A DNA stretch of 64,000 nt, taken from contig JBBTRB010000003.1 of NCBI GenBank assembly GCA_038065395.1, positions 19,851 through 83,850 on the forward strand. The letters are read 5' to 3'. Positions 6,447 through 63,095 of this stretch are shown one piece after another. A program made the translations under genes and the position numbers. The notes beneath the pieces were generated by a model. It made no database searches. It saw only the letters and a list, made by a program, of their open reading frames with translations, and was not told the origin of the DNA. Within the stretch, counting starts at the first letter, position 1, and each line of letters opens with the position of its first letter. This DNA is from Patescibacteria group bacterium (lineage in GTDB: Bacteria; Patescibacteriota; Minisyncoccia; Phycocordibacterales; PALSA-1337).

Positions 6447-6527
6447 GTCATCCCCATGAAAATGGGGATCCAGGATGTCACCACACTCTGTGGCTAGATC
6501 CTGGATTCCCGCCTTCGCGGGAATGAC
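6447..6527. repeat. RPE-like palindromic repeat element, short form (copy 1)
   Basis: Left arm gtcatccccatgaaaatggggatccaggat, spacer, right arm atcctggattcccgccttcgcgggaatgac. Intergenic between the M16 peptidase start and the glyQS stop. Confidence 0.8.
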
Positions 6528-6529
6528 AA

Positions 6530-7858
6530 CTACTGAATCTTCCCTACCAGATACTCTACCAACTTATCTTCTGCGATACGCTCCTGCGTGCCACTATCAC
6601 GATCGCGTACGGTGACACCTTCTCCTTTTTCGATCGTCTCAAAGTCGACAGTAACGCAAAACGGTGTACCGATCTCATCTTGACGGCGATAACGTTTGCC
6701 GATGTTACCGTTGTCGTCGAAGATAACTCCGGGGATGTTGGCTTTTAGCGTAGAGAATACTTCTTGGGCTTTCTTGATGAGCTCAGGTTTATTCCTGAGC
6801 AGTGGAAAAACTGCCACTTTGTATGGTGCAACTGATGGGGTCAGTTTGAGATAGGTGCGTTTCTCGCCACCCATATCATCCTCGGTATAGGCATCAGTGA
6901 GAACCGCAAGTACGGTGCGGTCGAGACCAAATGATGGTTCGATGCAATGTGGGACGAACCTCTCTTTGCTCTCTTCGTCATAGTATGACAAATCTACCTT
7001 ACTAAATTCAGAGTGTTGCTTGAGGTCGAAGTCCGTGCGATACGCCAGACCATAGAGCTCTTTCTTGCCAAATGGGAAATCGAATTCGAAGTCGATCGTT
7101 CTCTTGGAATAGTGTGCCCTGTCACCGTCGGCAACTTCGAGTTCATGGACTTTGGCAGCGTTGAGTCCCACGTCTTTGGTGAAAGCCAAGACTTCCTGTC
7201 TGAAATGTTCGAAGGTTTTCTCCCACTCTTTTGGGTTGACGAAATACTCGATCTCCATTTGTTCGAACTCACGTGCACGGAACAAGAAATCTCGTGGAGC
7301 GATCTCGTTGCGGAATGCCTTGCCGATCTGTGCCATACCGAATGGCAGTTTCGGATGCAGTGAGTCAAGGATATTCTTGAAGTTCACGAACATACCTTGA
7401 GCTGTCTCTGGGCGCAGATACGACACCGATGAAGAGTCGTTACTTGCTCCGACCTGTGTCTTGAACATCATGTTGAAAGACTTCACCGGTTCCCAAGAAT
7501 TCTTGGTCTCACACTCAGGACAACTATCTGGCAACTGCCAACTCTTGTCTCCTGCTTGTGTGCCGATCTGATCCGCACGAAAACGATGTTTGCACTTTTT
7601 GCACTCTACGAGTGGATCGGCGAAGCCAGAGACGTGACCGGAGGCTTCCCAGGTACGCTGATTCATCAGGATCGCTGCGTCCATACCATACATATCGTCA
7701 CGAGTATCGACGAAACGTTTCCACCAGATCTGTTTGATATTGTTCTTGAGAGCAACTCCCAGTGGCCCATAATCCCAGGTACCAGCCAAGCCTCCATAAA
7801 CTTCCGATCCCTGAAAAATAAAACCTCTGCGTTTACAGAGAGCCACCAACGATTCCAT
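6530..7858 (-). CDS. glyQS: glycine--tRNA ligase (homodimeric GlyQS type)
   Basis: MESLVALCKRRGFIFQGSEVYGGLAGTWDYGPLG is the canonical class II GlyRS N-terminus. Start placed at the ATG preceded by an AAAGAGGA RBS; the ORF extends to 7885. Confidence 0.9.
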   Translation of the reverse strand: MESLVALCKRRGFIFQGSEVYGGLAGTWDYGPLGVALKNNIKQIWWKRFVDTRDDMYGMDAAILMNQRTWEASGHVSGFADPLVECKKCKHRFRADQIGTQAGDKSWQLPDSCPECETKNSWEPVKSFNMMFKTQVGASNDSSSVSYLRPETAQGMFVNFKNILDSLHPKLPFGMAQIGKAFRNEIAPRDFLFRAREFEQMEIEYFVNPKEWEKTFEHFRQEVLAFTKDVGLNAAKVHELEVADGDRAHYSKRTIDFEFDFPFGKKELYGLAYRTDFDLKQHSEFSKVDLSYYDEESKERFVPHCIEPSFGLDRTVLAVLTDAYTEDDMGGEKRTYLKLTPSVAPYKVAVFPLLRNKPELIKKAQEVFSTLKANIPGVIFDDNGNIGKRYRRQDEIGTPFCVTVDFETIEKGEGVTVRDRDSGTQERIAEDKLVEYLVGKIQ

Positions 7859-7892
7859 TGTGTCCTCTTTTTTCATATGTCGCATTGTATAC

Positions 7893-7923
7893 GAAAAAAG
7901 CCAGGACGGGAAGCGTCTTGGCT
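7893..7923 (-). terminator. leader-region intrinsic terminator immediately upstream of the glyQS RBS
   Basis: Minus strand reads AGCCAAGACG-CUUCCC-CGUCCUGGCU plus UUUUUU, about 30 nt before the start codon. Confidence 0.5.
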
Positions 7924-8239
7924 TGGAAAGTCACCCTCCCGTTCGATGTAGTACACCAGCGAGGAACCTTATCCGAAGGAGAACAAATTAACCTTCGGAG
8001 GCAAATGCCAGTAGAACGATCGGAACGGAAGGGTCCTGGTGGACGCCAGGAAAGTGGACCCGTCTTCAGAGAATACATTTTGGAGGTGGCGAGGAACCAG
8101 TCCTGGGATGTTGTCTGAAGACGGGCGGTATCACACTGAGGAGCACAAGATGTTATCACAACTCTGGTGGAGTTGGTCCAAACAACCTCTCGCGTCGTCA
8201 ACCCATATGACACCTAAAGGGTTCAAAGAATCTGACAGC
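7924..8239 (-). promoter_or_regulatory. long structured 5' leader of glyQS; candidate T-box-like attenuator
   Basis: About 345 nt between the promoter and the start, with several perfect hairpins. An alternative helix GGGAGGG...CCCGUCC overlaps the terminator 3' strand. The canonical T-box motif was not confirmed. Confidence 0.3.
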
Positions 8240-8269
8240 AGTATAACCGATATTAGGGATTTGTCAATA
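8240..8269 (-). promoter_or_regulatory. sigma70-like promoter for glyQS leader
   Basis: Minus strand reads TTGACA, a 16-17 nt spacer, then TATACT. Confidence 0.45.
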
Positions 8270-11543: not shown

Positions 11544-12218
11544 CTACAACTGTGACGCCTGCAAGGAAGCATTGATGATACCGTTCACTTGCACCCGTAT
11601 TGGTGAAAAAGTAGAGAGCAACTCGGCCGAGAGATCGTAGGACATGACGAATGGCTTGGTGACTTCATGGTCACCGATATAGCCGAGCAGGTTCAGGATA
11701 CGGAGCGCAGTGAGAGACTCGAGTTCCGGCAATTTCTCAGCGGGCATATGGCCACTTATTCCGACTGTTGACTCTAGACAGTCAAAAAGTTCTGGATGGG
11801 GATCTTCACCTTGCAGGAGGCGCTTGAGTAACGTGGACATACGGACGAGGAGTTGTGCGTGTATTTTTCTACTGTTTTTTAGTTTGTCATTCCCATGAAA
11901 ATGGGAATCCAGGATATCACCATGTCTTGTGAGCAGATCCTGGATTCCCGCTTGCGCCTCCGCTGCGCTTTGGCTTGCGGGAATGACAGACTGCTGCGCA
12001 CTCGTGAGCCTCCACACTTCTTTGCCCCTGACCAAAGAGAAAATACCGAGTGAATAGTCACTGGTATGGTAGCGGAGTTTCGACTTCTCGAGACGGATGC
12101 CTTGCGCGGCGACCGAGACGAGGCCAAGGTCACGCGTGAAGATCGACAACATCTTCCCTGCTTCGCCGTAGGGGCGTGAACCGATCACAAATCCAGGTGT
12201 AGTATGGATGCTGTACAT
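11544..12218 (-). CDS. recO: DNA repair protein RecO (short form) carrying an in-frame repeat insertion
   Basis: N-term GFVIGSRPYGEAGKMLSIFTRDLGLVSVAAQGIRLEKSKLR matches the RecO OB-fold. Codons 78-111 are encoded by the palindromic repeat. Confidence 0.7.
   Translation of the reverse strand: MYSIHTTPGFVIGSRPYGEAGKMLSIFTRDLGLVSVAAQGIRLEKSKLRYHTSDYSLGIFSLVRGKEVWRLTSAQQSVIPASQSAAEAQAGIQDLLTRHGDILDSHFHGNDKLKNSRKIHAQLLVRMSTLLKRLLQGEDPHPELFDCLESTVGISGHMPAEKLPELESLTALRILNLLGYIGDHEVTKPFVMSYDLSAELLSTFSPIRVQVNGIINASLQASQL
11886..11987. repeat. RPE-like palindromic repeat element (copy 2) inserted in-frame in recO
   Basis: 102 bp (34 codons) beginning on a codon boundary. Arms gtcattcccatgaaaatgggaatccaggat / atcctggattcccgc...gcgggaatgac. 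Encodes VIPASQSAAEAQAGIQDLLTRHGDILDSHFHGND. Confidence 0.8.
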
Positions 12219-12224: not shown

Positions 12225-15200
12225 TTATATTCTCACCGAGAACACTTCACCGTATTCTATAGCCGACAGTCCTGTTGTCTTCTTGATCTCCTGTTCGTAT
12301 TTCATAGCAAGAGGTCGCGCTTCTTCGGTGAGTGTAAGAATCGCCACATCATTCACAGAGAGATTTTTCTCTTTGCGAGCATCTTGGATCTTACGGATGA
12401 GTTCACGGAGATCTCCTTCTTCTTTCAAACTCGGAGTGATAGTGATATCGAGCTCGACATCCTGTGCGATCGAAGTGTCTGTTTTGACTTCTTTGACATT
12501 AACCTCGTCCTTCACAAGTTCGACGAGTTCTGGGGTCAACGATATTTCCTTCCTGACTTTGAGTGTCTGTAGTGGCTGACGAACATTGATCTTGGATTTC
12601 ATACGAGCTTCGAGACCGCGTGAGGCGAGATCACGTACGGTTTGCATATCGGTGATGAGGTTCTTATCGACTATTCCTGCTACTGGCCACTGCTCCAGAT
12701 GCACACTCTCCTTGTCACCTCCTACTTCCTGGTAGAGATACTCTGCGAAGAACGGCGTGAATGGCGCCATGACTTTCGCAAGTGTCACGAGAACATAGTG
12801 AGTCGTCTCCAGTGCATGTCGTGCATCTTCGCCACCATCTTTGAATCGGTCACGTGAACGACGCACATACCACTGTGACAAGTCGGCAATGAAGTCACGT
12901 ATCGCGCGTGTAGGTTCAAGTAACACGTACGCATCCAGACCTGTGGTCACATGCCCCACCAGTTCATCGAGCTTGGAAACAATCCATTTATCTAGCACGT
13001 GCGATGAATTGTTCAATTGTTCCTTTGTTGAATTGTTCCTTGTCCCTTCGTACATCTTATAAAACGTCGTGACATTCGTAACCAAGTTGAACACTTTTTT
13101 GATGATCTCATCGACGGTCTTCTGGTCGAAGTTCTTTGACTCGCCAGGTTGGTTGACCGAGTACATCCAGAAGCGCAATGCATCTGCACCATAGAGATCC
13201 ATCATGTCCCATGGGTTGACCACGTTGCCGATGGATTTGCTCATCTTCTTACCCTCAGCGTCGAGGATATGCCCGAGACAGATGACATTCTTGAATGCCT
13301 TGCCTTTGCCCATGAGTGCACCGATCGCATGGAGCGTATAGAACCACCCACGTGTCTGATCGATGGCTTCGGAGATAAAATCTGCAGGATAGTTGGTGGC
13401 TTTCTTGATCCCCAACAGCTTGCCGTCGATACGATCCTTATTCTCAAAAGGATAATGATCCTGTGCAAAAGGCATCGCCCCCGAGTCGAACCATACGTCC
13501 ATGACTTCTTTGACACGCTTCATCGGAGAACCGCATGAACATGTGAGCGTGACTTCATCTATATACGGACGATGAAGATCGAGTTCGTATTCATGGTTAT
13601 GAGGGAGGATGGAGAAATCCAAGACATGGAACTGTGCATTGTGTATAAAATCCACATCTTTGCGCATGTGCATGGACTCAGATCTATTCCAACCCTTGGC
13701 CGCAGCGAACAAGAGGAATGCGGGCGTCTCATGAGTGACGATCAGGATCTTCTTGCCTTCATGAGTACGTTCCATATCGTACAAAAAGTCACCCATGCGT
13801 TTCTTGATATCGGCGAATGTCTCACCTCCTTCGGGTGCCTGGGTAAATCGGTCGTGACCCTTAAAACCTTTCACAAAATCAGAAACACTCGTCCCATCTG
13901 CAGAACCAGTACCGAGTTCACGGAGACGCTCATCTGTATGCATCGCGCCCTTATCGAGACCCCACGTACTGCGAAGTATTTCTGCGCTTTCTTGCGTACG
14001 CACGAATGGTGACACATATATCATATCGAACTTTTCTTTCTTGAGAGCTTCAGCGGCCACAGTGACCTGAGTCTTTCCTTTCTCTGTGAGATGATGCGGA
14101 ACATCTGCCTTACCAGAAAGGATCGCCTTCACGTTATTCTCTGCCTCTCCATGTCGCATGACATAGTAGGTATTCTTGGGCTTCTGCGCGATCTCTGCCA
14201 CAGATCCTACGACCTGCCTTTTGTCACATCCAGTACATGCCCACACAGGCAGAGGCGTACCCCAATACCGTTCGCGTGAGATCGCCCAGTCTTTGACTTC
14301 TCGGAGCCATTCACCGAACCGACCCTGTCCGATATGAGCAGGTTCCCAAGCAATCTCTGTGTTCTCTGTGACGAGCTTGTCACGGAGCTCGGACATACGG
14401 ATATACCACGAGTCACGCGCAAAATAGATAAGCGGTGTTTTGCAACGCCAACAATGTGGGTAGGTATGCTCGTGTTTCTCTTTATGGAAAAGGAGGCTGC
14501 CCTCTGGGCGGAGCGCCAAGTTCTTGATGATCTCCACGGCAACTTCTTCGCTCTTCACAAACTTACCTGCAAGAAAACCAGCCTCAGACTTGAATGTGCC
14601 GTCATCGTTAACCAGATGATATTTTGGTAAGCCCACCTTTGTGCCAAGCTCAAAGTCGTCTTGGCCATACATCGGCGCGATATGGACGATGCCTGTACCA
14701 TCTTCAGTTGTAACAAAGTCCCCCGCGTATACCTTGAAGGCATTACTGAGCTTGTCTTTCTCTGTGCCGGTCACTCCGTCTTTCAAGAATGGATACAGTG
14801 GTTCATATTCGAGACCAACGAGGTCAGAGCCTTTGAATTCTTTTTCAATTTGATAGGATTCTTTGATCAAACTGAGACGAGTTTTTGCAAGGATGACTCG
14901 GGCGTCCGCGGTCTGATCCTGGATTCCCGTTTTCACGGGAATGACAATCTGGACATACTCAACATCGTTCCCTACCGCCAATCCGACGTTGCCCGGAAGA
15001 GTCCACGGAGTCGTCGTCCATGCCAAAAGAAATGTATTCTTGAATCTTGGATCCTGAATCTTGAACTTAACGTAAACCGACAAGTCTTTGACTGTCTCAT
15101 ACCCCTGCGCGAGTTCATGCGACGAGAGCCCGGTACCGCAGCGCGGACACCATGGTACGACTTTGTAATCCTTATAGAGGAGTTTCTTCTGTTCAACTGT

Positions 15201-15707
15201 CTTGACGATATTCCACAACGACTCGATATAGTTCGGCCTGTAGGTCACGTAGGGATCCTTGAGGTCGACCCAGTACCCCATGCGGTCAGTGAACTTCTCC
15301 CATTCACCGACATATCTCCAGACACTCTCTTTGCATTTCTCATTGAACTTTTCTATGCCGTAGACTTCGATCTCTTTTTTCGACTTGAGTCCGAGCTCTT
15401 TCTCGACTTGGAGTTCCACAGGTAGACCGTGAGTGTCCCAGCCTCCCTTACGACGAACATGGAAGCCCTGCATGGTTTTGTAACGAGGGATAGCGTCCTT
15501 GAAAGCACGAGCCTCGAGGTGGTGGATACCGGGCATGCCGTTGGCTGTCGGAGGTCCTTCGAAGAAGGTGAACTCTCCTTGTGGCGCGTCTTTGTTCAGA
15601 GTCTTGGCGAAGATCCCCTTCTCCTTCCAGGACGCAAGGATACGCTCCTCACGTTCAGCATGAGTGCTTTTGGTATTCTTCTTTTCTGGGGTAACAGGTT
15701 CAGACAT
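12225..15707 (-). CDS. ileS: isoleucine--tRNA ligase with an inserted histidine-phosphatase (PGAM-like) domain
   Basis: 1160 aa with KMSKS, WCPRCGT, TTPWTLP editing and DLHRPYIDE motifs. An extra ~200 aa between the Zn knuckle and DLHRP carries YVMRHGEAENN and SPFVRTQESAEIL. Confidence 0.95.
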   Translation of the reverse strand: MSEPVTPEKKNTKSTHAEREERILASWKEKGIFAKTLNKDAPQGEFTFFEGPPTANGMPGIHHLEARAFKDAIPRYKTMQGFHVRRKGGWDTHGLPVELQVEKELGLKSKKEIEVYGIEKFNEKCKESVWRYVGEWEKFTDRMGYWVDLKDPYVTYRPNYIESLWNIVKTVEQKKLLYKDYKVVPWCPRCGTGLSSHELAQGYETVKDLSVYVKFKIQDPRFKNTFLLAWTTTPWTLPGNVGLAVGNDVEYVQIVIPVKTGIQDQTADARVILAKTRLSLIKESYQIEKEFKGSDLVGLEYEPLYPFLKDGVTGTEKDKLSNAFKVYAGDFVTTEDGTGIVHIAPMYGQDDFELGTKVGLPKYHLVNDDGTFKSEAGFLAGKFVKSEEVAVEIIKNLALRPEGSLLFHKEKHEHTYPHCWRCKTPLIYFARDSWYIRMSELRDKLVTENTEIAWEPAHIGQGRFGEWLREVKDWAISRERYWGTPLPVWACTGCDKRQVVGSVAEIAQKPKNTYYVMRHGEAENNVKAILSGKADVPHHLTEKGKTQVTVAAEALKKEKFDMIYVSPFVRTQESAEILRSTWGLDKGAMHTDERLRELGTGSADGTSVSDFVKGFKGHDRFTQAPEGGETFADIKKRMGDFLYDMERTHEGKKILIVTHETPAFLLFAAAKGWNRSESMHMRKDVDFIHNAQFHVLDFSILPHNHEYELDLHRPYIDEVTLTCSCGSPMKRVKEVMDVWFDSGAMPFAQDHYPFENKDRIDGKLLGIKKATNYPADFISEAIDQTRGWFYTLHAIGALMGKGKAFKNVICLGHILDAEGKKMSKSIGNVVNPWDMMDLYGADALRFWMYSVNQPGESKNFDQKTVDEIIKKVFNLVTNVTTFYKMYEGTRNNSTKEQLNNSSHVLDKWIVSKLDELVGHVTTGLDAYVLLEPTRAIRDFIADLSQWYVRRSRDRFKDGGEDARHALETTHYVLVTLAKVMAPFTPFFAEYLYQEVGGDKESVHLEQWPVAGIVDKNLITDMQTVRDLASRGLEARMKSKINVRQPLQTLKVRKEISLTPELVELVKDEVNVKEVKTDTSIAQDVELDITITPSLKEEGDLRELIRKIQDARKEKNLSVNDVAILTLTEEARPLAMKYEQEIKKTTGLSAIEYGEVFSVRI
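14916..14945. repeat. solo arm of the RPE-like element inside ileS (in-frame)
   Basis: atcctggattcccgttttcacgggaatgac; on the coding strand it encodes VIPVKTGIQD (10 codons). Confidence 0.6.
15041..15065. repeat. 25-nt mini-repeat (CYTGAATCTTRRATCCTRWATCTTG family) inside ileS
   Basis: tgaatcttggatcctgaatcttgaa encodes KFKIQDPRF; similar to two copies in argS. Confidence 0.4.
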
Positions 15708-15758: not shown

Positions 15759-17498
15759 TTACATCCTCTCAGGAATTTTGATACCGAGGATCCACAGACC
15801 ATTCCTCATCACCGTTAGAAACGCTTTGGTTACTGCGACGCGATATGCGGACAACGGTTCCTTTTCATCGACAATAACATTCGTGGCGTAGAAGGCATTG
15901 AATGCTCCTGCTAGTTGGATCAAATATCCTGCCACATGTTGCGGTGCATACTCGGCACGTGCACGAGCGATGATATCTGGAAAACGAACTATCAGTCTTT
16001 CGAGAGTACTGACTTGGATAGACGGCATGTCCTGAATCTTGAATCCTGTATCTTGAATCTGTTTTGCCTTCTCCAGAACCGCTCCCGCTCTCACTGCCGC
16101 ATACTGCAGATATGGACCCGAGTCTCCTTCGAATGATACCGACGTCGCAGAATCAAAGATCACGTCACTACCTACGGCTTGACGGAGGATCGTGTATTTG
16201 ATCGCACCGATCGCGATCTCATCACTTACTTTCTCAGCTTCTTCGGGACCAAATTCTCTACCCGAAATCTTTTCTGTTACCAGTTCCTTGATATCATCGA
16301 TCAGACTTTCTGCAGCAATGATATTGCCTTTGCGTGAAGACATTTTCCCTGAAGCAAAGCGCAACATGCCATGACTCATGTGTTTGGTCTTGTCCCCGAT
16401 CTTTGGATTGACCAACGAAAACACTTTCAGAAGTACTTTGAAATAATCACTCTGTTCATTGGCAGTGATGATCACTGACTCATCGAGATCTGGATACAAT
16501 TCGAACTTTTTGCTGTTGAGGCCGAGCTCTTTGGTCTCGTAGGTTGGTAGACCATTGGAAGTGATGAAGACGCGTGTATGCACTCCATAGTCTTCTCCTT
16601 TGAAAATAGTTGCACCCTCACTTTCTATGAATACTTTGCCGAGAAATTCTTTGACGATCTGTACACCCGCATCGGCGACTTCGCTTTCGAAGAAAAAGTT
16701 ATTAAACTTCGTACCGAGACGCGCATAGATCGTGTCAAAATATTCGAGACTCCACTTCCTCCCTTCTTCATACATCTTGTTGATTTCTGGATCAGACTTT
16801 TCGAAGATCTGTTTGTTGATCGCATGTATCTCCTTCTGTGCCACCGCATCGTCTTCGAAAGCATTCGAACCGATCACGTACATCTCACCGAGCCATTTCA
16901 CCTTCTCAGTAATTGTTGAACTCTCTTGAATCTTAAATCCTAAATCTTGCCTCTTGTTTTGTATTGCCCAAATCGTCTTCGCCACATGCAACCCCACATC
17001 ACCCTGGTAACAGGCACGGACAACCTCTGCACCTGATGACTGGACCAGACGTGAAATAGACTCGCCTACTGCGTTCGACATCAAGTGTCCAATATGAAAA
17101 ACCTTGAAAGGGTTTGGGTCGGTATACTCGACCATGACCTTTTTGCTTTTCGAATCAGTCGCCCACCCATATTCCCCGTCACCACTCGCGATCTCCACTA
17201 CCTTCCCCGCAAAGACAGCATCTTTTATCTTGAAGTTGACGAACCCGGGACCAGCGATAGTGATCTGCTCCACAAACTCGAGATCAGCCTTCTCAAGTTC
17301 TGCGACGATCTCTTCTGCCAAAGCACGCGGGCTGACTCCCTTCTTTTTTGCGTACGCCAATGCGACGTTGGTAGCATAGTCACCATGATCCAGGCTCTCT
17401 GGATATTCGAGACGAACTGAGGAAGGGTCCGTAGTAGCAAGGCCTACCCTTGCAAGCGCCGTAACGAGGGCGGCAGTGAGTTCTTGACGCATATTCAT
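15759..17498 (-). CDS. argS: arginine--tRNA ligase
   Basis: 579 aa with HIGHLMSNAVGES (HIGH) and MSSRKG (KMSK) class I motifs. Confidence 0.9.
   Translation of the reverse strand: MNMRQELTAALVTALARVGLATTDPSSVRLEYPESLDHGDYATNVALAYAKKKGVSPRALAEEIVAELEKADLEFVEQITIAGPGFVNFKIKDAVFAGKVVEIASGDGEYGWATDSKSKKVMVEYTDPNPFKVFHIGHLMSNAVGESISRLVQSSGAEVVRACYQGDVGLHVAKTIWAIQNKRQDLGFKIQESSTITEKVKWLGEMYVIGSNAFEDDAVAQKEIHAINKQIFEKSDPEINKMYEEGRKWSLEYFDTIYARLGTKFNNFFFESEVADAGVQIVKEFLGKVFIESEGATIFKGEDYGVHTRVFITSNGLPTYETKELGLNSKKFELYPDLDESVIITANEQSDYFKVLLKVFSLVNPKIGDKTKHMSHGMLRFASGKMSSRKGNIIAAESLIDDIKELVTEKISGREFGPEEAEKVSDEIAIGAIKYTILRQAVGSDVIFDSATSVSFEGDSGPYLQYAAVRAGAVLEKAKQIQDTGFKIQDMPSIQVSTLERLIVRFPDIIARARAEYAPQHVAGYLIQLAGAFNAFYATNVIVDEKEPLSAYRVAVTKAFLTVMRNGLWILGIKIPERM
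16029..16055. repeat. 27-nt mini-repeat copy inside argS
   Basis: Coding strand caagatacaggattcaagattcaggac encodes QDTGFKIQD. Confidence 0.4.
16931..16957. repeat. 27-nt mini-repeat copy inside argS
   Basis: Coding strand caagatttaggatttaagattcaagag encodes QDLGFKIQE; 22/27 nt identical to the 16029 copy. Confidence 0.4.
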
Positions 17499-46617: not shown

Positions 46618-46621
46618 TGGT

Positions 46622-48723: not shown

Positions 48724-48753
48724 ATATTTTTATGTTTAATTATTTTAATAAGT

Positions 48754-49362: not shown

Positions 49363-49386
49363 ATATTTTTATAGTTAAGTTAATAG

Positions 49387-52348: not shown

Positions 52349-52352
52349 ATTT

Positions 52353-52619: not shown

Positions 52620-52723
52620 ATACATACATAATACCCCCTAGGGGTATAGACTGTCAAATCAGTAAATGCAAACATTGGAAAAAAGGCGAATTCGTTGTAG
52701 ATTTGTAGCAAATTACTATTACC

Positions 52724-53365
52724 ATGACTCCAGCTGCCAAAATCAGGTTTGTGAAAAACCGAATTGAAGATCAGGTCGCCATAAGCCCGAAAGGGCCTAT
52801 TGTTCTGCCTGTGCATGATATTTTCACTAATTCTTTTACCTTTCTGGCCAAGGAGCAATATTTGATACTCAAAAAACTTCAGGAGGACGGCTACATAAAA
52901 GGCCTCTTTCCTCTTGAGAAAAAGGAGGTCTGGTTTGAAATGACCGGCAAGCCTCTCGATCCGTTCGGCCTCATCGCCATGAATGCTGCCAAAGGCAGGA
53001 AGCCCGCGCGAGTGGCTGTAAAAGATACTCTGCTCATGACCAAGGAGCTTGAGCCCGACTTCGAGGTGAGCGGTCTTGCCTCATATTCTGACGGGACCAT
53101 TCGCTACAAAGACACGATCGTCCCTCTCCGTGGCCAGATCAAGGATTTGTGCCGCCTGTTCATGCGCAATCCGAAACGGCTTATTACCCGCGAGGACATC
53201 AAGGAGAACATCATCGCCGCCGACAAGCGCAAATCTGTTCCGAAAATCACCATTTCCAAATATGTAAGCGAGCTTCGTAATTCATTGAGAGTTCATTTCA
53301 AGAAAGACGTGATCTACAGCCAGAAAGATGAGGGCTGGTACTTCGACCCGAGCAAAAAGAGCTAG
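52724..53365 (+). CDS. putative winged-helix (OmpR/CadC-type) DNA-binding regulator
   Basis: C-terminal LITREDIKENII...ISKYVSELRNSL...WYFDP resembles a trans_reg_C domain. Confidence 0.4.
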   Translation: MTPAAKIRFVKNRIEDQVAISPKGPIVLPVHDIFTNSFTFLAKEQYLILKKLQEDGYIKGLFPLEKKEVWFEMTGKPLDPFGLIAMNAAKGRKPARVAVKDTLLMTKELEPDFEVSGLASYSDGTIRYKDTIVPLRGQIKDLCRLFMRNPKRLITREDIKENIIAADKRKSVPKITISKYVSELRNSLRVHFKKDVIYSQKDEGWYFDPSKKS

Positions 53366-53466
53366 AAATCCGATTCATTTCTGAATATTGAATGAGCGCA
53401 CTCACCGAAACTGTGAGTGCGTTTTCATATTGAATACGCGCATTACTAATCTAGCGAAATTACTCT

Positions 53467-53739
53467 ATGACAAGAAAATTAAAGCCTCGGTCCCACCAGG
53501 ACGACGAGGCATCAGTGTTTACTACTTACGACCTTGGAGTATCGGCGGCACTCTTGTGCCTCGGGTACAAGCTAATACGCTTGGACCGCGACGATCCTCG
53601 CAAGGCCCTTTTCGTATTCAGGAAAGAAGCGGATATCGATACGTACGCCAATCAGTATTTTTCAGATCAGCTCAAAGTCAAAGCTCGGTCGTTCTTTGAC
53701 AGCATCAAGGCGTTGAAGAATAAGCTCTACTCCGAATAG
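53467..53739 (+). CDS. hypothetical protein
   Basis: 90 aa. Confidence 0.35.
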   Translation: MTRKLKPRSHQDDEASVFTTYDLGVSAALLCLGYKLIRLDRDDPRKALFVFRKEADIDTYANQYFSDQLKVKARSFFDSIKALKNKLYSE

Positions 53740-53741
53740 CT

Positions 53742-54008
53742 ATGCTGCTTTTGGACGTGGACATCAAAAAGTTCCAAGAGCTTTACAAGGCTCGCTTTGG
53801 AATGGACATAAGCAAAGAAGAAGCCTTAGCAAAAGGCACTCAGCTTGTGCGCCTGATGGAGCTCGTCTATAAGCCAATGTCTCAAGAAGAACACGAGCTC
53901 ATCCACAAGCGACGGCTCGAAACGCTTCCCTTACTAGCACATAAATTACAAAATCATGAATCAGAATCTAGAGTCACTTACAATCAAAGACGAGCTCGAC
54001 AAAATTAA
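53742..54008 (+). CDS. hypothetical protein
   Basis: 88 aa; overlaps the start of the next ORF. Confidence 0.3.
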   Translation: MLLLDVDIKKFQELYKARFGMDISKEEALAKGTQLVRLMELVYKPMSQEEHELIHKRRLETLPLLAHKLQNHESESRVTYNQRRARQN

Positions 54009-55317
54009 GGAACGCATTACCCCGCCTGAACCGATCACCCTTGATCAGGTCCGACATGTCCTGGACCTCACCATCAAAAAAGATGATGGAAATAAAATCA
54101 TCACGTTTCTTGCAATGCTTGCTGCATACACCGACAATGCGCAATTCAATATCAGTTTTAATGCTCCCTCATCGTCCGGCAAGAGCTTTATTCCTCTCGA
54201 GATCTCAAATCTCTTTCCACAGGAGGATGTTATGAAGCTCGCCGGGGCATCGCCCACATCATTTCTTCACGAGAGCGGTGTGTATAAAAAGGAAACGAAT
54301 GAGCGCTTTATCGACCTATCAAGGAAAATCATCATCTTCCTCGATATGCCGCATGCAACGCTTTTAACAAAGCTCCGATCTCTATTATCTCATGATGAGA
54401 AAGAGACGAGGCACAAGATTACGGATAAAACGGAGAAAGGCGGTACACGCACAAAGACCGCCGTCATCAGAGGCTTCCCGTCGGTCATATTCTGCTCGGC
54501 CAATGCCAAAATGGACCAGCAGGAAATGACCCGCTTTCTACTTCTCAGTCCTGAAATAAATCAGGAGAAGATACTTGCCGGAATCCACCAGTCCTCTCGC
54601 AAGGAATCCGACAAGAAGAAATATTATAAAGAGCTCAATGAGAATCCTCTGCGTAAAGCGCTAATCGAGCGCATAGCTTTAATCAAGGCTGCCGGTGTCG
54701 ACGAGATTATCATTGAGGACGAGAAAGGCGTTCAGCAAAGATTTCTCGCTCACATACAAAATCCGCAACCGAGAAATCAGCGAGACATTAAACGTATTTA
54801 CTCAATCATCAAATCAGTTGCTCTTTTGAATGTCTGGCATCGCAAGCGCCAAGGCACTACGCTCTACGCATCCGAACTAGACATCGATACCGGCTTTGAG
54901 ATTTGGGATAAGATATCGCTCTTTCAGGAGCTTGAAATATCGCCATACCTCTACGAATTCTATTCGCAGATTATTCTTCCTTTGTGGAATCGGGACCAGA
55001 TCGACGAGTTCGGTGATCCTGTGGCTGAAGAAAAGAAGATAGGCGTTACCCGTCAAGACATGCTCAAGCAATACGCCCACGTCTATGGCGGCAACCTTGG
55101 CATGTTCAGGCTTCGCTATGACTATCTGCCGAACATCGAATCGGCTGGCCTTATCTTCCAGGAACCTGATCCGAATGATCGTCGGCAACTCCTGACATAC
55201 CCAACTATCGCCGCTAAGAGGCTTGAGAAAACGGAGGAAATACATAGTGCGTACGAGCCGGGGGTAAATATTACCAACGTTGAAAATGAGATAAAAGCCG
55301 AGGACGTTCCGTTCTAA
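53956..55317 (+). CDS. P-loop NTPase, putative replication/mobilisation protein of the integrated element
   Basis: Walker A NAPSSSGKS; 453 aa. Confidence 0.5.
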   Translation: MNQNLESLTIKDELDKIKERITPPEPITLDQVRHVLDLTIKKDDGNKIITFLAMLAAYTDNAQFNISFNAPSSSGKSFIPLEISNLFPQEDVMKLAGASPTSFLHESGVYKKETNERFIDLSRKIIIFLDMPHATLLTKLRSLLSHDEKETRHKITDKTEKGGTRTKTAVIRGFPSVIFCSANAKMDQQEMTRFLLLSPEINQEKILAGIHQSSRKESDKKKYYKELNENPLRKALIERIALIKAAGVDEIIIEDEKGVQQRFLAHIQNPQPRNQRDIKRIYSIIKSVALLNVWHRKRQGTTLYASELDIDTGFEIWDKISLFQELEISPYLYEFYSQIILPLWNRDQIDEFGDPVAEEKKIGVTRQDMLKQYAHVYGGNLGMFRLRYDYLPNIESAGLIFQEPDPNDRRQLLTYPTIAAKRLEKTEEIHSAYEPGVNITNVENEIKAEDVPF

Positions 55318-55386
55318 GGGACTTGCAATTACCCCACGAAGAAGGTAACACAGCAACACCCCTTAGAATTAACATTACCCAATTAT

Positions 55387-56973
55387 ATGGCTACAAACGT
55401 TGAATACTTCATGTATGCCCGCAAATCCTCTGAGTCCGAGGATCGGCAGGAGCAATCAATCGAGGATCAGATAAATCGATTAAAAGAACGAGCTAATTCC
55501 CTTGGTATTTCAGTCAAAGAAATCTTGACCGAAGCGAAGTCGGCCAAACAGCCAGGACGACCTGTATTCAACGATATGTTGAACCGAATCAAGAAAGGTG
55601 AAGCTCAAGGAATTCTCTGTTGGCAAATAAACCGCCTCTCACGTAATCCCATTGATAGTGGCGCGCTCTCGTGGATGCTTCAGCAGGGTGCTTTGAAAGC
55701 TATACAGACGATGGAACGAGAGTACTTACCGGAGGACAATGTACTTCTCTTTAGCGTTGAGAGCGGAATGGCGAATCAGTTCATCATCGAGCTCCGCAAA
55801 AACACAAAGCGAGGCATGCATGGTAAAGCAGATCGTGGATGGTTTCCCTCAAAAGCTCCAGCTGGATACGTCAACGAACGACTCGAACACACGATTCAGC
55901 CTGATCCAGAACGTTTCGACCTCATCAGAAGGATGTGGGACCTTATGCTTACCGGAAATTACACGCCAGTGTCGATAGCTGAGATCGCAAGCAAGGAATG
56001 GGGTTATCGGTCCCTGAAAAGTAAGCGGAGTGGCGGAGTCGAGATGGCTCCAAGTGTAATTTATAAAATGTTTAAGAACATTTTCTATACGGGAATGTTT
56101 GAGTGGGGTAAGAAAATCTATAAAGGAAATCATAGACCGATGATCACGCTTGAGGAGTATGATCGAGTCCAGGCTATCTTCGGCAGGACCGGAAAGCCTC
56201 GAGGTCAAACGCACGAGTTCGCATTCACCGGACTTATTCGCTGCGGTCTGTGCGGTGCGATGTATACCGGTACTGAAAAAACCAAGACAATAAAGAAAAC
56301 CGGTGACCTCAAAACATACACCTACTACCATTGTTCAGGCCACAAGAAAGGCGTGCCATGTCCAAAGCGAAATCCAATCAATCTTATTGACCTCGAACAG
56401 CAGATCGAGCTTCTGCTTGAGGAGTACACGATACTCCCCGAATTTCAGACCTGGGCTATTGAGGCTTTGAATCGTAACAACGATAAGGAAATCGAGGAGC
56501 GTACAAAGATTTATGAGATGCAGCATAAGACTGTCGTCGAGTCGCAGACTGAGCTCGATAACCTAACTAAGATGCGTTACCGCGATCTTATCGATGACGA
56601 CACCTTCGTCAAAGAGCGTGACATCTTAAAGGATAAGATTGCCCGATTACAGGCGAAACTCCGAGAAACCGAGGGACGTGCTTCAAAGTGGCTGGACCTT
56701 ACTGAACAGGCGTTTAGCTTTGCCTGCTACGCTAGAAAAGAGTTTATTATGGGCGATCTTCAGCGAAAGCGTGAGATATTCTCATCACTTGGCCAAAACT
56801 TCTATCTCAAAAGTGGCAAAGTCTTTATCACTGGCAATGAATGGTTCCAGCCAATCAAAGAAGCATACCCTGAATTTAGGGCTAAATTTGAGAGGTTAGG
56901 ACTGAGAGAATACGCCTCTGTTGAGGCACGAAATGTTGCTTTTGCAACACTCATTCTCGAATGGGGTGCCTAA
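55387..56973 (+). CDS. large serine recombinase
   Basis: N-terminal resolvase catalytic domain YARKSSESEDRQEQSIEDQ, recombinase domain, zinc ribbon CGLCGAMYTG...YYHCSGH, C-terminal coiled coil. Confidence 0.85.
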   Translation: MATNVEYFMYARKSSESEDRQEQSIEDQINRLKERANSLGISVKEILTEAKSAKQPGRPVFNDMLNRIKKGEAQGILCWQINRLSRNPIDSGALSWMLQQGALKAIQTMEREYLPEDNVLLFSVESGMANQFIIELRKNTKRGMHGKADRGWFPSKAPAGYVNERLEHTIQPDPERFDLIRRMWDLMLTGNYTPVSIAEIASKEWGYRSLKSKRSGGVEMAPSVIYKMFKNIFYTGMFEWGKKIYKGNHRPMITLEEYDRVQAIFGRTGKPRGQTHEFAFTGLIRCGLCGAMYTGTEKTKTIKKTGDLKTYTYYHCSGHKKGVPCPKRNPINLIDLEQQIELLLEEYTILPEFQTWAIEALNRNNDKEIEERTKIYEMQHKTVVESQTELDNLTKMRYRDLIDDDTFVKERDILKDKIARLQAKLRETEGRASKWLDLTEQAFSFACYARKEFIMGDLQRKREIFSSLGQNFYLKSGKVFITGNEWFQPIKEAYPEFRAKFERLGLREYASVEARNVAFATLILEWGA

Positions 56974-57037
56974 TGGGATTCGAACCCATGCTGCGGCTTT
57001 CACAGAGCCGAGTGCTAACCATTACACCATAGGCACC
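56962..57037 (-). tRNA. tRNA-His (GTG) with encoded G-1 and CCA
   Basis: Manual fold: 8-bp acceptor stem with G-1:C73, anticodon loop CUGUGAA, T-loop TTCGAAT, 3' CCA encoded. Confidence 0.85.
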
Positions 57038-57142
57038 ATATAACTACCTGCTCATTTATACCAGATTTACGGCATAAGTACAGATGAGACTATAGTTGAC
57101 TTCCCCTTCATAACGAGTAATGTTGTCATTAGAAAGGCTCTT

Positions 57143-61221: not shown

Positions 61222-61230
61222 TATACATAT

Positions 61231-61914
61231 ATGATTGAAGTCAAAAATCTCTACAAAACATTCAAAAACGGACAAGTCGAAACGACCGTCCTCAAAGACA
61301 TCGATTTCAAGATCGAGGAGGGTGAATTCATCGCTATCATGGGACGCTCCGGTGCCGGCAAAAGTACCTTCATGTACCAACTCAGTCTGCTCGACGAACC
61401 GACTCGAGGACAGATCACGATCGACGGTATCCGTACAGATACGATGAGCAACGAAGCCAAGACGCTGTTCCGTCTATCTCGACTCGGCTACGTGTTCCAA
61501 GACTACGCGCTGATCCCCGAACTCACTGCCGCAGAGAACGTAGCTCTTCCCCTCCTGATGCAAGGTATGCCAACCAAAAAGGCGTTCGAGACTGCCAAGA
61601 AGGCCCTCAATACGGTCGGTCTCAAAGATCATATGAATCAACTCCCGAGTCAACTCTCTGGTGGCGAGCAACAGCGCGTGTCTATCTCTCGTGCCATCGC
61701 GCATAACCCTGACATCCTCTTTGCTGACGAACCGACCGCCAACCTCGACAACGAATCCTCTCGCACGATCATGGGCATCTTCAAAGAACTTCATAAGCAG
61801 GGCCAAACGATCATCATGGTCACTCACGAACCTGAGTATGGTGAGATGGCCGAGAAGATCGTTACTCTCGATGATGGGCAGATCGTTAAGGTGAAGAAGT
61901 CCGCCTCCGCATAA
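61231..61914 (+). CDS. ABC transporter ATP-binding protein
   Basis: Walker [10 protein letters not shown], signature LSGGEQQR, Walker B ILFADEPT. Confidence 0.9.
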
Positions 61915-62037
61915 AGCTCCGGCATGACGAGGAATTAGCCCCACTACGCCAAGGCTTCGCGGGATGTATAGAGTATAAAAAGCCCCATCCTTCGGTCGCG
62001 TGTGCGAATGAGGGATGGGGTGTTTGATTGGTTCAAA

Positions 62038-62769
62038 TTATCTGGAACCTGTAGGAATGACCAGCCCTGGTTCATACTGTGCGAAACCGGCAAAGACCAT
62101 CTGTCTATGCACGTAACTCAAAGACAAAAATGTTTTCGTCAGCAGTTCCGACTTGATCCAGGTGAGAAGATCTTTTGGCTCACCGTAAGCAACCAGTGGG
62201 AAAAAGGCTACCGAGGGAGAGATCTGACAACCTTCTGTAGTTAACGTTATGGTTTGAAGAAGACGAGAGCGTCCCGCAGCATTGCCAAAAACTTCTGCTG
62301 AGTAATACGTGAATTTCCCTATCGCTTTACTCAGACGACTTCTCACAACTTCAAAATCAGTCGATGTTGCAGAACGCTCTCGAAAGTTGGAGGATTCTTC
62401 AAGGAAACTGAAGAGACCCGCATCATCTTCCTCTTTTGTGAAAATTTCGAAAAACGCCGTGATTACACCCTCCACAGAGAGAACGAGCCCTGGAGTCTTC
62501 ATTATTGTACGATGCACCCAAGGAGCAACATGATCGTACTTGAGACCCCATGTCGCAAGGCAATCTGCGACATACAAACTATTACTCGACCTTGAACGAT
62601 CACTAGCAAGAAACCCGACGGATTCTTCTATCATGTTCTCAGCAGTCTTTTCAGTCGAAGCAACTACCAGATCATGGACAAACCATCTATCCGGATGTTT
62701 ACTCTGCATCCACATTTCACGAATCGCTTTTGCAGCGCCGATTTGATCTTTTCTAAGTACTGGTTTCAT
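62038..62769 (-). CDS. hypothetical protein
   Basis: 243 aa. Confidence 0.45.
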   Translation of the reverse strand: MKPVLRKDQIGAAKAIREMWMQSKHPDRWFVHDLVVASTEKTAENMIEESVGFLASDRSRSSNSLYVADCLATWGLKYDHVAPWVHRTIMKTPGLVLSVEGVITAFFEIFTKEEDDAGLFSFLEESSNFRERSATSTDFEVVRSRLSKAIGKFTYYSAEVFGNAAGRSRLLQTITLTTEGCQISPSVAFFPLVAYGEPKDLLTWIKSELLTKTFLSLSYVHRQMVFAGFAQYEPGLVIPTGSR

Positions 62770-62909
62770 ACCAACCTTTCTGATCCTCTCGGATCTCTTG
62801 CAATCCCCTCTCGGGGATATTATGTATGTTCTTGCTCTCGCAAGAGGCTTACAACGTGCAAACCTGACTGAACTCTATGCTTTTTCGGGAAGATGTCAAA
62901 TGCGGTTGT

Positions 62910-63095
62910 GTCATCCTCGCGCAGGCGGGGATCTAGGAGCAAGGGCATGGCTACTTATTTAATATCTATACAACCACAAAACATTAGATACTATCCCTGT
63001 AAGTAAATGCCGAACCTATCACATTTATTATTTACATAGCCTAAGTCGACTATATACTGGGAGTGATTCTGGATCCCCGCCTGCGCGGGGATGAC
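62910..63095. repeat. RPE-like palindromic repeat element, long form (copy 5)
   Basis: gtcatcctcgcgcaggcggggatctaggag ... attctggatccccgcctgcgcggggatgac. Inner termini aagggcatggctactta... and ...atatactgggagtg match the 25254 copy. Confidence 0.8.

Follow-up and report, generated by a model that had tools for sequence, protein, structure and literature searches.

Repeats of the CGTC-1 family of REPs consist of an unpaired (C/T)GTC tag, an 8-bp stem that starts with AT, a 4-nt loop and a CCA tail (PMC3733652). Di Nocera, De Gregorio and Rocco (2013) assigned the dRS3 repeat of Neisseria and RPE-6 of Rickettsia conorii to CGTC-1, and RPE-4 to the sister family CGTC-4. CGTC-1 repeats form inverted dimers, often heterodimers, with conserved spacers of 20–100 bp. 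In the genomes analysed, the upstream ORF ends less than ~20 bp before the repeat, and the flanking genes run in one direction or converge; in-frame copies within DNA-repair and tRNA-synthetase genes are also known. The same survey located CGTC repeats in five phyla, mainly in Alphaproteobacteria (PMC3733652). Neisseria SsnA, a GIY-YIG nuclease, acts on ssDNA: it binds the hairpin and makes its cut a few nucleotides to the 5′ side of the GTC tag. The three nucleotides before the palindrome are reported to be critical for cleavage, and the C after it for binding (Chenal et al. 2025, PMC11893778). Binding and cutting of ssDNA and modulation of transformation have been shown for Neisseria Ssn, while mobility of the repeat is put forward by those authors as no more than a hypothesis (PMC11893778). 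In addition, Bertels and Rainey have described ATTCCCGCGCAGGCGGGAATC as the seed of a Neisseria REPIN tied to Group 2 RAYT.

Here, six elements of this kind are described in a Patescibacteria MAG (~47% G+C). The window, that is, the whole 64-kb stretch of DNA analysed, contains 11 arms of ~30 nt, arranged as five inverted dimers and one solo arm (Table 1). The tag, the 8-bp AT stem with its 4-nt loop, the CCA tail, the inverted dimers and the gene context of CGTC-1 REPs were all found, including location at gene 3′ ends and in-frame copies in a repair gene and a tRNA-synthetase gene. The differences from CGTC-1 REPs described so far are the host phylum, a tag that is always TGTC, and a tail extended to CCAGGAT.

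Table 1 Positions and genomic surroundings of the elements in the window
Element	Position	Arms (strand)	Surroundings
Copy 1, short inverted dimer	6446–6528	6446–6476 (+), 6498–6528 (−); spacer 6477–6497	1 nt 3′ of the stop of a class II aminoacyl-tRNA synthetase gene (6530–7858, minus strand); 24 nt upstream of the start of an M16 peptidase gene (6421)
Copy 2, dimer	11885–11988	11885–11915 (+), 11935–11988 (−)	In recO (11544–12218, minus strand)
Solo arm	14916–14946	(−)	In ileS (12225–15707, minus strand)
Copy 3, long dimer	25253–25432	25253–25283 (+), 25402–25432 (−)	Intergenic; a DHFR-like gene (plus strand, to 25237) and rplK/L11 (minus strand, to 25439) converge on it
Copy 4, short dimer	28028–28111	28028–28058 (+), 28081–28111 (−)	2 nt downstream of the folD stop (28114–28116); upstream of a SIMPL-family gene (start 27986)
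Copy 5, long dimer	62909–63096	62909–62939 (+), 63066–63096 (−)	22 nt downstream of the stop of a pseudouridine synthase gene (63119)

Anatomy and family membership of the arms

All 11 arms open with an unpaired TGTC tag, followed in every case by an 8-bp stem of the form ATYCCCRY/RYGGGRAT, the first two pairs of which are A-T and T-A. The loop comprises 4 nt (GNAR) in ten arms and has grown to 25 nt in the eleventh, the minus-strand arm of copy 2; the 3′ tail reads CCAG in ten arms and CTAG in one. Ten arms lie within 0–4 mismatches of the consensus, the left arm of copy 5 being the most decayed (4 mismatches). The chance expectation for such arms is zero: with the consensus of an earlier note on this DNA, ten arms were found at ≤3 mismatches, as against 0.00 in 100 shuffles. 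A search that allowed up to nine substitutions recovered no further decayed arms in the window, and we therefore regard the inventory as complete. The elements are identical in the NCBI MAG, the ENA contig and Logan contigs, which rules out an assembly artefact; two of the Logan contigs start exactly at an element, as expected where a repeat breaks assembly.

Pairing within the stem is preserved by compensatory changes. Among 178 arms from 120 loci, the pair Y6–R21 was T-A in 152 and C-G in 26, with no non-Watson–Crick combination, even though the search pattern would have permitted T-G and C-A. The pair Y11–R16 in the same set was C-G in 162 arms, T-A in 15 and T-G in one. These results show that the arm is a sequence-specific hairpin whose stem is kept paired, as expected of a hairpin under selection.

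Including the outer T and A, the three short forms measure 83, 104 and 84 nt; they share a conserved spacer of 19–22 nt and are 70–86% identical in pairwise comparisons. The two long forms (copies 3 and 5; 180 and 188 nt) are homologous end to end and 76% identical overall, with inner termini conserved over ~44 nt on the left and ~22 nt on the right and a diverged centre. Their cores are AT-rich (35% G+C), and the 118-nt core of copy 3 contains a perfect, terminator-like hairpin of 9–10 bp followed by a T-rich tract. Folding was strong both in RNA (z = −7 to −11) and in ssDNA (copy 1, −26.4 kcal/mol, z = −6.35). The earlier note, which had proposed such folding, listed five full copies and a solo arm, and its positions proved correct within 1 nt throughout. 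Its description of every arm as a hairpin, and of the long forms as ~180 bp with an AT-rich core, conserved inner termini and a perfect 9-bp hairpin in copy 3, agrees with the present data. One measure needed adjustment: the conserved unit of the arm runs 1 nt further at each outer end (T before GTCAT, A after ATGAC).

The arms closely resemble those of Neisseria. Of the 28 positions of the Neisseria NTS consensus, the right arm of copy 1 shares 27 and the other arms share 21–25. The 20-bp dRS3 sequence ATTCCC-N8-GGGAAT is present exactly in four arms, and six carry the compensated variant ATCCCC-N8-GGGGAT; the arm at 62909 is of the latter type with an extra C-to-T stem mismatch. The Ssn-related motif (SRM) pattern HGTCWYN(0-2)YYVSBRHN(0-5)WNVSBRGN(0-2)RNCYNB matched eight of the 11 arms (0.42 expected from 100 shuffles), the exceptions being two arms with an ATG stem and the expanded-loop arm. 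A private, lineage-specific set of terminal repeats was considered and rejected, as the arm motif recurs nearly base for base in unrelated phyla. On sequence and anatomy, we assign the six elements to the CGTC-1 REPs, known also as Neisseria dRS3/NTS, Ssn-related motifs and Rickettsia RPE-6.

Insertion sites in recO, ileS and behind stop codons

Two of the six elements lie in frame within genes. In recO, the 102-nt core of copy 2 supplies 34 codons that separate the OB-fold domain from the helical domain and encode the peptide VIPASQSAAEAQAGIQDLLTRHGDILDSHFHGND. This insert is absent from the RecO proteins of relatives (185–193 aa, ~58% identity). One closer relative (L133, 77% identity) has the copy in decayed form: 79 of 102 nt are identical, which at 77% is the same as for the whole gene, and both hairpins have decayed, whereas the arms in the window are canonical except for the 25-nt loop. 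In ileS, the solo arm contributes 30 nt, that is, ten codons (VIPVKTGIQD, residues 255–264), to the CP1 editing region. Exactly these ten residues are missing from the 77%-identical ortholog in L131 and from PDB entry 8c8w. Both insertions have clean boundaries, and both ORFs are intact and annotated as genes. At this site in ileS, the relative natively reads AAAACGGG, which is identical to the loop and 3′ stem of the arm inserted here.

The four intergenic copies lie 1, 2, 6 and 22 nt past a stop codon; the neighbouring genes are unidirectional at three of these sites and convergent at the fourth. At the rplK–DHFR site, relatives have an arm-free gap of 55–84 nt, which holds a bidirectional terminator hairpin of their own; at the folD–SIMPL site, the gap is 28–54 nt, likewise without arms. 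Copy 4 has the stop codon on one side and a conserved TATAAT box on the other, and a −35-like hexamer now falls within the arm. The elements land just past stop codons or, in frame, at variable-length or insertion-tolerant regions of proteins.

Across ~20–35 kb of syntenic DNA in relatives, no arms were detected. Empty loci, which the earlier note had suggested looking for, exist at the folD–SIMPL, rplK–DHFR and ileS sites, and together with the absence of the RecO insert at ~58% identity they show that the elements entered this lineage by insertion. In 132 distinct dimers there was no sign of target-site duplication (flanking 2-nt direct repeats, one observed and 1.3 expected); beyond the arms, only the inverted symmetry extends, by 1–3 nt. 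At 70–86% identity, the copies in the window are not near-identical and thus give no sign of recent transposition.

The Ssn nuclease and possible origins of the dimers

Among the loci fetched, more than 350 carry the same arm; they represent many phyla and include viral contigs. In 13 of them, a plus-strand arm and a minus-strand arm enclose an ORF of 93–94 aa for a GIY-YIG protein of the Ssn type, in units of ~340 bp. Two of the 13 ORFs were compared with Pfam and matched PF01541 (E = 1e-13 and 1e-15), and the 94-aa ORF of locus L030 has the three residues that were mutated in the work on SsnA (Y6, Y17 and E64). Clustering of neighbouring ORFs showed that this gene is the only recurrent cargo between arms. 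None of the ten canonical arms departs from the bases reported as critical for SsnA, namely GTC ahead of the palindrome and C behind it, and the expanded-loop arm has them as well. The Ssn-bearing loci recovered, among which there is no Patescibacteria ssn, have 53–69% G+C, and no close homologs link them to the window. A profile HMM of the 13 Ssn proteins found nothing at E ≤ 10 in the six-frame translation of the 64-kb window, and Pfam annotation, which covered almost all of it, gave no nuclease or transposase genes. The earlier note had held that arms matching a repressor operator shared with unrelated taxa would speak against its reading; the arms are indeed shared with unrelated taxa, as a dispersed repeat with an associated nuclease and not as a repressor operator.

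Based on these findings and on the published work on SsnA, we propose that the elements are probably CGTC-1 REPs that inserted here as non-autonomous ssDNA hairpins recognised by Ssn. The arms (for example, TGTCATYCCCRYGAARRYGGGRATCCAG) would act as ssDNA hairpins for a small Ssn-family GIY-YIG nuclease, and the dimers would be non-autonomous companions of an arm–ssn–arm cassette that moves between phyla. Such transfer would explain the near-identity over 28 nt between Neisseria and this Patescibacteria genome. Once inserted, copies would be kept or lost depending on whether a lineage still maintains the system. RNA hairpins at gene 3′ ends would be a by-product, with a possible role in transcript stability or termination. 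Only one of the two arms of a dimer is oriented for cleavage on any given strand, so this scheme does not explain a simple cutting out of the dimer. This point counts against the proposal, as do the lack of an ssn gene in the window and of a Patescibacteria ssn among the recovered loci, the divergence of the copies, and the merely hypothetical status of repeat mobility in Neisseria itself.

A different origin, which we judge unlikely, is that the arms are relics, seeded long ago by a horizontally transferred cassette since lost, and that they now persist, with occasional spread, only by host processes such as gene conversion, microhomology template switching or recombination. The divergence of the copies, an insertion older than a split at 77% identity and the lack of an enzyme gene in the window are consistent with this, and the match of AAAACGGG to the arm at the ileS site hints at microhomology-guided conversion. 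However, ten arms remain at 0–4 mismatches with compensated stems while the cores and the L133 copy decay, which points to constraint or homogenisation still at work in this lineage.

Still less probable is a REPIN origin, in which a REP-associated tyrosine (Y1/HUH) transposase would copy the dimers; Bertels and Rainey suggest this for the Neisseria sequence, which is identical. Several features are shared with the REPIN/REP–RAYT systems of Pseudomonas and E. coli: two inverted REPs that fold as ssDNA, a short conserved spacer, no target-site duplication, vertical persistence, and decay once the system is lost. The enzyme and its signal are what differ. A tblastn search with E. coli RayT found no match in the window or in ~370 arm-bearing loci, so that no RAYT lies near any arm examined, whereas ssn lies directly between arms in 13 loci; nor did Di Nocera et al. 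(2013) find a tyrosine transposase gene flanked by CGTC repeats (PMC3733652). Moreover, the arms carry the tag TGTC, of the CGTC type, and lack the GTAG tag that RAYTs cleave.

We consider it very improbable that the elements are host cis-regulatory devices (3′-end stabilisers, terminators or protein-binding sites) and not usefully mobile DNA. The post-stop siting of all four intergenic copies, within 1–22 nt, and the strong RNA folds would suit such a role, as would two local effects: copy 3 replaces the bidirectional terminator of relatives and brings its own hairpin and T-rich tract, and copy 4 places a −35-like hexamer ahead of a conserved −10 box. Yet a regulatory role leaves unexplained both the in-frame copies in ileS and recO and the occurrence of the same 28 nt in unrelated phyla and viral contigs; the arms have no T-run and were not flagged in a terminator scan of 24500–29000, and close relatives manage without the elements. 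Descent from a DDE-transposase IS as classical MITEs, moved by cut-and-paste through terminal inverted repeats, is scarcely credible: the ~30-nt inverted arms, small size and short and long forms would fit, but the 132 dimers lack target-site duplications, each arm is itself a hairpin and occurs also as a singleton, and neither of two clusterings of neighbouring ORFs showed a recurrent DDE transposase close to arms.

Relation to described repeats and wider bearing

The kind of element is already described, and only the host is new. The family, its dimers, its siting after stop codons and its in-frame habit were published in 2013 and the nuclease in 2025, so the present data add a host and not a principle. 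With them, CGTC/NTS repeats extend to (groundwater) Patescibacteria, which are likely under-sampled by RefSeq-based surveys. They also provide a small set of syntenic genomes in which sites are filled, empty or decaying, one of them in the essential IleRS; with this set, insertions could be dated and active maintenance of the arms could be tested. A genome of ~1 Mb is, in addition, a handy system in which to ask whether persistence of the repeat needs an Ssn gene.

Two bolder readings are possible, although we hold them only tentatively and think it improbable that either is correct: the arm–ssn–arm cassette might be a minimal, ~340-bp GIY-YIG-driven transposon whose non-autonomous dimers entered the ultra-small Patescibacteria, or the arms might propagate by host machinery only. 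The former, if true, would be a class of mobile element so far undemonstrated, with dimers written into essential proteins and possibly spread to DPANN archaea too (one Nanoarchaeota MAG contig, L062, of unverified binning). If the latter is true, a ~1-Mb genome keeps more than 100 canonical arms without any Ssn or RAYT, and the replication and repair machinery of the host alone propagates and homogenises them.

The comparison with Rickettsia palindromic elements made in the earlier note is borne out by insertion in frame within functional genes at two of six sites and by the arms themselves, which on the published assignment of RPE-4 and RPE-6 fall in the same superfamily. Its basis is the placement of R. 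conorii RPE-6 in CGTC-1 by Di Nocera et al. (2013); the equivalence is taken from that literature, and the arms are likened to RPEs by description. The host is not a Rickettsia, and no relation of the arms to the longer RPE-1-type elements (~100–150 bp) was shown. Peptides encoded by the elements matched no NCBIfam model at E ≤ 10, a result that covers RPE-domain models only if the library holds them.

With the Neisseria dRS3/NTS repeats and SsnA, the elements share a nearly identical arm sequence and an orientation set by the 5′ GTC and the 3′ C. NTS form large clusters around surface-protein genes in Neisseria, whereas the dimers are dispersed here; 2% of NTS are intragenic in N. meningitidis (PMC11893778), as against two of six elements (three of 11 arms) in the window. 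SsnA modulates natural transformation, a process not known for this Patescibacteria organism. The two long forms resemble NIME, in which dRS3-type hairpins likewise bracket segments of 50–150 bp; NIME form tandem arrays, whereas each site in the window holds a single dimer. Arrays of arms do occur in one Rhodopseudomonas locus (L044) and in some viral contigs.

Arm inventory, anatomy and folding

Reading the sequence at each of the six sites listed in the earlier note bore out its description nearly base for base. Its arm consensus recovered ten arms at ≤3 mismatches, compared with none in 100 dinucleotide-preserving shuffles. The eleventh, the right arm of copy 2, went undetected there owing to a loop of 25 nt in place of 4. 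Allowing up to nine substitutions revealed no extra decayed arms in the window, which leaves five inverted dimers and one singleton as the complete inventory of this stretch. The arm limits had been drawn almost exactly, except that the conserved unit, TGTCAT...ATGACA, is one base longer at each end.

Hairpin elements and other features of the window, with the corresponding sites in syntenic relatives
Feature	Coordinates (strand)	Window	Relatives
Copy 1, short dimer	6446-6528	in aaRS-M16 gap	different palindrome, ~125 nt
Copy 2, short dimer	11885-11988	in recO	
Expanded-loop arm of copy 2	11935-11988		
Solo arm	14916-14946	in ileS	
Copy 3, long dimer	25253-25432	rplK-DHFR gap 201 nt, element 180	gap 55-84 nt, bidirectional terminator hairpin
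Copy 4, short dimer	28028-28111	folD-SIMPL gap 127 nt, element 84	gap 28-54 nt
Copy 5, long dimer	62909-63096		
Promoter-like site	28016-28044 (-)		
42-aa ORF	62820-62948 (-)		
IleRS gene	12225-15707 (-)	1160 aa	1150-1173 aa
26-nt motif, three copies	15038-15063; 16030-16055; 16924-16949	in ileS and argS coding regions	
39-nt direct repeat	38674-38712; 45677-45715	7 kb apart	
Lower-G+C region	~44000-57100	43-46% G+C	
Large serine recombinase	55387-56973	528 aa	
tRNA gene	56965-57036 (-)		

The division into short and long forms also held. All three short forms carry a conserved spacer of 19-22 nt (pairwise identity 70-86%), and the two long forms are homologous from end to end (76% identity); their inner ends are conserved and the centre, of 35% G+C, has diverged. 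A search of the window and of fetched loci L001-L130 gave no other occurrence of the long-form inner termini. Folding each copy, as the earlier note had proposed, gave compact single-stranded DNA structures for the short forms, with a separate 8-bp hairpin in each arm and pairing both between CCAGGAT and ATCCTGG and between the outer ends, TGTCAT and ATGACA. The free energies were -25.7 and -26.4 kcal/mol for copies 4 and 1 (z about -6.3) and -25.0 kcal/mol for the recO copy (z = -4.5). Both long forms have strong RNA folds (z = -11.2 and -7.1).

At gathering thresholds, Rfam reported only tRNAs in the window. Relaxed searches with the long form returned Wolbachia sRNA 46 below threshold (31 bits, against a gathering score of 65) and sub-threshold matches to miRNA-precursor models; the latter were dismissed, the displayed alignment being merely that of a long hairpin. 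The public annotation places a 42-aa ORF over the left arm of copy 5, which is probably a spurious call due to the repeat.

Exact-protein look-ups located the window sequence in a second assembly as well (GCA_964357315.1, contig CAYHKE010000001.1 of 761,713 bp, ~510,453-574,452), and the identical sequence is present in Hainich groundwater assemblies. The first base of copy 1 is the exact start of two Logan contigs, the expected picture where a repeat interrupts an assembly.

Repeat family, spread and stem covariation

CGTC-tagged REP family 1 (CGTC-1) is defined by a CGTC/TGTC tag, an 8-bp stem starting A-T/T-A, a 4-nt loop and a CCA tail (PMC3733652). Every window arm has all four features, save for the one expanded loop, and expanded loops in CGTC-1 are known from Bradyrhizobium (PMC3733652). 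Within the arm lies the dRS3 repeat ATTCCC-N8-GGGAAT, and the arm corresponds more exactly to the 28-nt Neisseria Transformation Sequence (NTS) CGTCATTCCCGCGMAVGCGGGAATCYRG (Chenal et al. 2025, PMC11893778). The best window arm differs from the NTS consensus at the first base only and the remaining arms at 3-7 positions. Moreover, a degenerate motif related to the GIY-YIG single-strand nuclease Ssn (PMC11893778) fits eight window arms, versus 0.42 in shuffles. We are nearly certain that the arms are CGTC-1/NTS-type repeats.

The analogy with Rickettsia palindromic elements (RPEs) drawn in the earlier note is sound: Neisseria dRS3 and R. conorii RPE-6 belong to CGTC-1 and RPE-4 to CGTC-4 (PMC3733652), and it is this published classification that places the window arms in one superfamily with RPE-6 and RPE-4. 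The in-frame copies in ileS and recO likewise behave as RPEs do inside genes. RPE-1-type elements appear unrelated to the window arms, as judged by a search of the encoded peptides against NCBIfam models (no match at E ≤ 10). In anatomy, position and gene targets, the elements do not depart from the 2013 and 2025 publications; the novelty lies in the host, a member of the Patescibacteria, and in a neat series of orthologous sites in filled, empty and decaying states.

A scan with GTCATYCCCRYNNNNRYGGGRATCYAG across one genome per species yielded at least 120 loci, whereas we estimate about two matches by chance in 596 Gb. The matches listed include Dehalococcoidia, Alpha-, Beta-, Gamma- and Deltaproteobacteria, Planctomycetes, Nitrospirae, Bacteroidetes, several Patescibacteria classes, a Nanoarchaeota MAG, a Rickettsiaceae endosymbiont, Neisseria lactamica and N. 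dentiae. Separate scans of viral and of metagenome contigs gave further matches, their number likewise a lower bound. The Nanoarchaeota contig (L062; 3.8 kb, 37% G+C) bears a canonical arm, TGTCATTCCCGCGCAGGCGGGAATCCAG, at 1508-1535; if its putative DPANN binning is correct, the motif crosses domains. Regularly spaced arrays of 6-23 arms, 75-310 nt apart and same-strand or alternating, lie in one fetched locus (L044, 5845-7310) and in viral contigs L143, L150, L183 and L208. Unlike the isolated dimers, they resemble the clustered NIME organisation of Neisseria.

The arm hairpin is under selection. In a set of 178 arms, drawn from the window and the 120 genome loci, 152 have T-A and 26 have C-G at stem pair 6-21, with no T-G or C-A, both of which the search pattern permitted; pair 11-16 is C-G in 162, T-A in 15 and T-G in one. 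The loop reads G-N-A-R in nearly every arm. Within the window, the ten canonical arms divide evenly at pair 6-21 (five T-A, five C-G), and the inner pairs are GC/GC, GT/AC or AT/AT, compensated without exception. The short-form dimers are heterodimers, their two arms differing in stem sequence, as are many metagenome dimers; both arms of long copy 3 are identical. Heterodimers have been suggested as a way of keeping long perfect palindromes from forming (Di Nocera et al. 2013, PMC3733652).

Filled, empty and decaying sites in relatives

Contigs from relatives bear FolD homologs at 68-70% identity and share the gene order of the window (folD-SIMPL-secE-nusG-rplK-DHFR... and argS-ileS-recO-...-aaRS-M16). 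The empty sites that the earlier note had suggested seeking were found there: 20-35 kb of syntenic DNA contains no arms at all. The insertion point of copy 4 has the folD stop codon on one side and a conserved TATAAT box on the other. In the rplK-DHFR gap, the window lacks the native hairpin and has a new one, supplied by the centre of copy 3. The aaRS-M16 gap is uninformative on insertion because a different palindrome occupies it in relatives. This palindrome, exactly at the site of copy 1 in the syntenic relative (L131, 14268-14390; L132, 9297-9419), has 22-nt terminal inverted repeats (AAGTGTTGTGGATACG...) and two internal hairpins, and is single-copy among the fetched loci and the window.

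All elements lie 1-22 nt past stop codons or in frame. In a comparison of 132 distinct dimers, direct repeats next to the elements were no commoner than expected by chance, with no target-site duplication, and beyond the arms inverted symmetry alone continues for 1-3 nt. A promoter-like site (10/12 positions) overlaps copy 4: the loop of a copy 4 arm provides the -35 hexamer (TTTTCA), and the TATAAT box that relatives share 5' of the SIMPL-family gene provides the -10. Insertion of copy 4 may have re-made the promoter of this gene.

Alignment of the window IleRS with a 77%-identical ortholog and PDB 8c8w showed exactly ten extra residues in the CP1 region (VIPVKTGIQD, 255-264), which the 30-nt solo arm encodes. 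Similarity that seemed to run past the arm had raised the reading of a full-dimer remnant; the ortholog alignment instead shows a clean 30-nt insertion. The native ileS sequence at the insertion point in L131, AAAACGGG, equals the loop and 3' stem of the inserted arm, which may be coincidence or microhomology guiding insertion or gene conversion. The same enzyme carries, at aa ~509-705 between the halves of its catalytic core, a ~190-aa insertion of the histidine phosphatase family (His_Phos_1, E = 4e-33) where PDB 8c8w has ~6 residues. A domain fused into an essential synthetase in this way is unusual, and the same architecture is annotated in relatives. A 26-nt motif, TCTTGAATCTTGGATCCTGAATCTTG, also recurs in this neighbourhood (88% identical, spaced about 0.9-1 kb).

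RecO has 224 aa in the window versus 185-193 in relatives. The 34 extra residues, VIPASQSAAEAQAGIQDLLTRHGDILDSHFHGND, translate the 102-nt dimer and lie in a variable linker after the OB fold. A closer relative (L133, 77% protein identity) shares this insertion at the identical position, expanded loop included, with both hairpins degraded. It matches at 79/102 positions and has thus diverged as far as the whole gene, which marks the recO insertion as old. The arms have been preserved in canonical form along the window lineage and have degenerated along that of L133. A further recO (L135) carries a different arm in the same linker, again with an expanded loop. In both expanded arms (4 -> ~25 nt), stem and flanks are kept, and the 21 nt added to the window loop preserve the recO frame. 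Five of the six arm reading frames are open, and one frame is open throughout the whole short dimer. Since DNA-repair genes and tRNA synthetases are among the usual hosts of intragenic CGTC/GTAG repeats (PMC3733652), the choice of recO and ileS is typical.

Ssn and the proposed mobility of the arms

The analysis thus shows a sequence-specific hairpin and lineage-specific insertion. Directly between inverted arms, 13 fetched loci carry an ORF of 93-94 aa, in a unit of ~340 bp. Pfam GIY-YIG matched both ORFs tested (E = 1e-13 and 1e-15), and the 94-aa ORF of L030 has Tyr6, Tyr17 and Glu64, which were the targets of mutagenesis in the work on SsnA (Chenal et al. 2025, PMC11893778). A rarer arm variant seen in the window, GTGAAAAC, recurs in 4 of the 13 ssn loci; in the cassette of P0241 (the Ssn from L321), the arms read CGTCATTCCCGTGAAAACGGGAATCCAG. 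SsnA binds the NTS hairpin as ssDNA only and cuts a few nt 5' of it, with three bases before the palindrome controlling cleavage and a C after it controlling binding (PMC11893778). These bases are invariant in the ten canonical window arms and present in the expanded-loop arm.

A transposase origin fares poorly. Bertels and Rainey assigned the same Neisseria sequence to Group 2 REP-associated tyrosine transposases (RAYTs), which conflicts with the arm loci here: no fetched locus contains a homolog of E. coli RayT, and unbiased ORF clustering near arms (120 genome and 118 metagenome loci) gave no recurrent transposase, only generic families plus, in the metagenome set, Ssn. The lack of RayT agrees with the description of CGTC repeats as having no dedicated tyrosine transposase (PMC3733652), and the arm-enclosed GIY-YIG ORFs agree with the link of the motif to Ssn made by Chenal et al. 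(PMC11893778).

In an Ssn-linked mechanism, the dimers would be non-autonomous partners of an arm-ssn-arm cassette; movement of the cassette between phyla would account for near-identical arms, and loss of the enzyme would lead to arm decay. Several points weigh against it. The candidate partner gene ssn is not found within the 64-kb window (nothing at E ≤ 10 with an HMM from 13 proteins against the six-frame translation), the window copies are not recent, on a given strand just a single arm of each dimer can be cleaved, and Ssn-driven mobility of the repeats is put forward only as a hypothesis in the Neisseria work (PMC11893778). On balance, we lean slightly towards an Ssn-linked mechanism operating in this genome. 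The long-form core was considered as a degraded ssn and rejected: neither tblastn nor the HMM detected ssn there, and the core does not resemble the inner ends of ssn cassettes. A homolog search with an Ssn query gave at least 8000 candidates, of which all among the matches listed were at least 80% identical and on short contigs; the PDB sequence search returned spurious WD40-repeat matches only and no solved SsnA structure.

Precomputed and fresh Pfam searches over nearly all genes found no nuclease or transposase in the window save one recombination-type protein, the large serine recombinase, which belongs to an unrelated lower-G+C region, likely an integrated island. No hairpin arms lie in this region (search at ≤9 substitutions). 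The recombinase adjoins a tRNA gene at the island end, and the region carries copper/metal genes (HMA/P-type ATPase, CsoR-like repressor, cupredoxin, DsbD/thioredoxin). A 97%-identical 39-nt direct repeat (TTACCCCACACCTGC.CTCACTATATCTAAAAAATAATC) flanks a second P-type ATPase and Dsb/thioredoxin genes, and could represent paired attachment sites or the duplication of a promoter or terminator.
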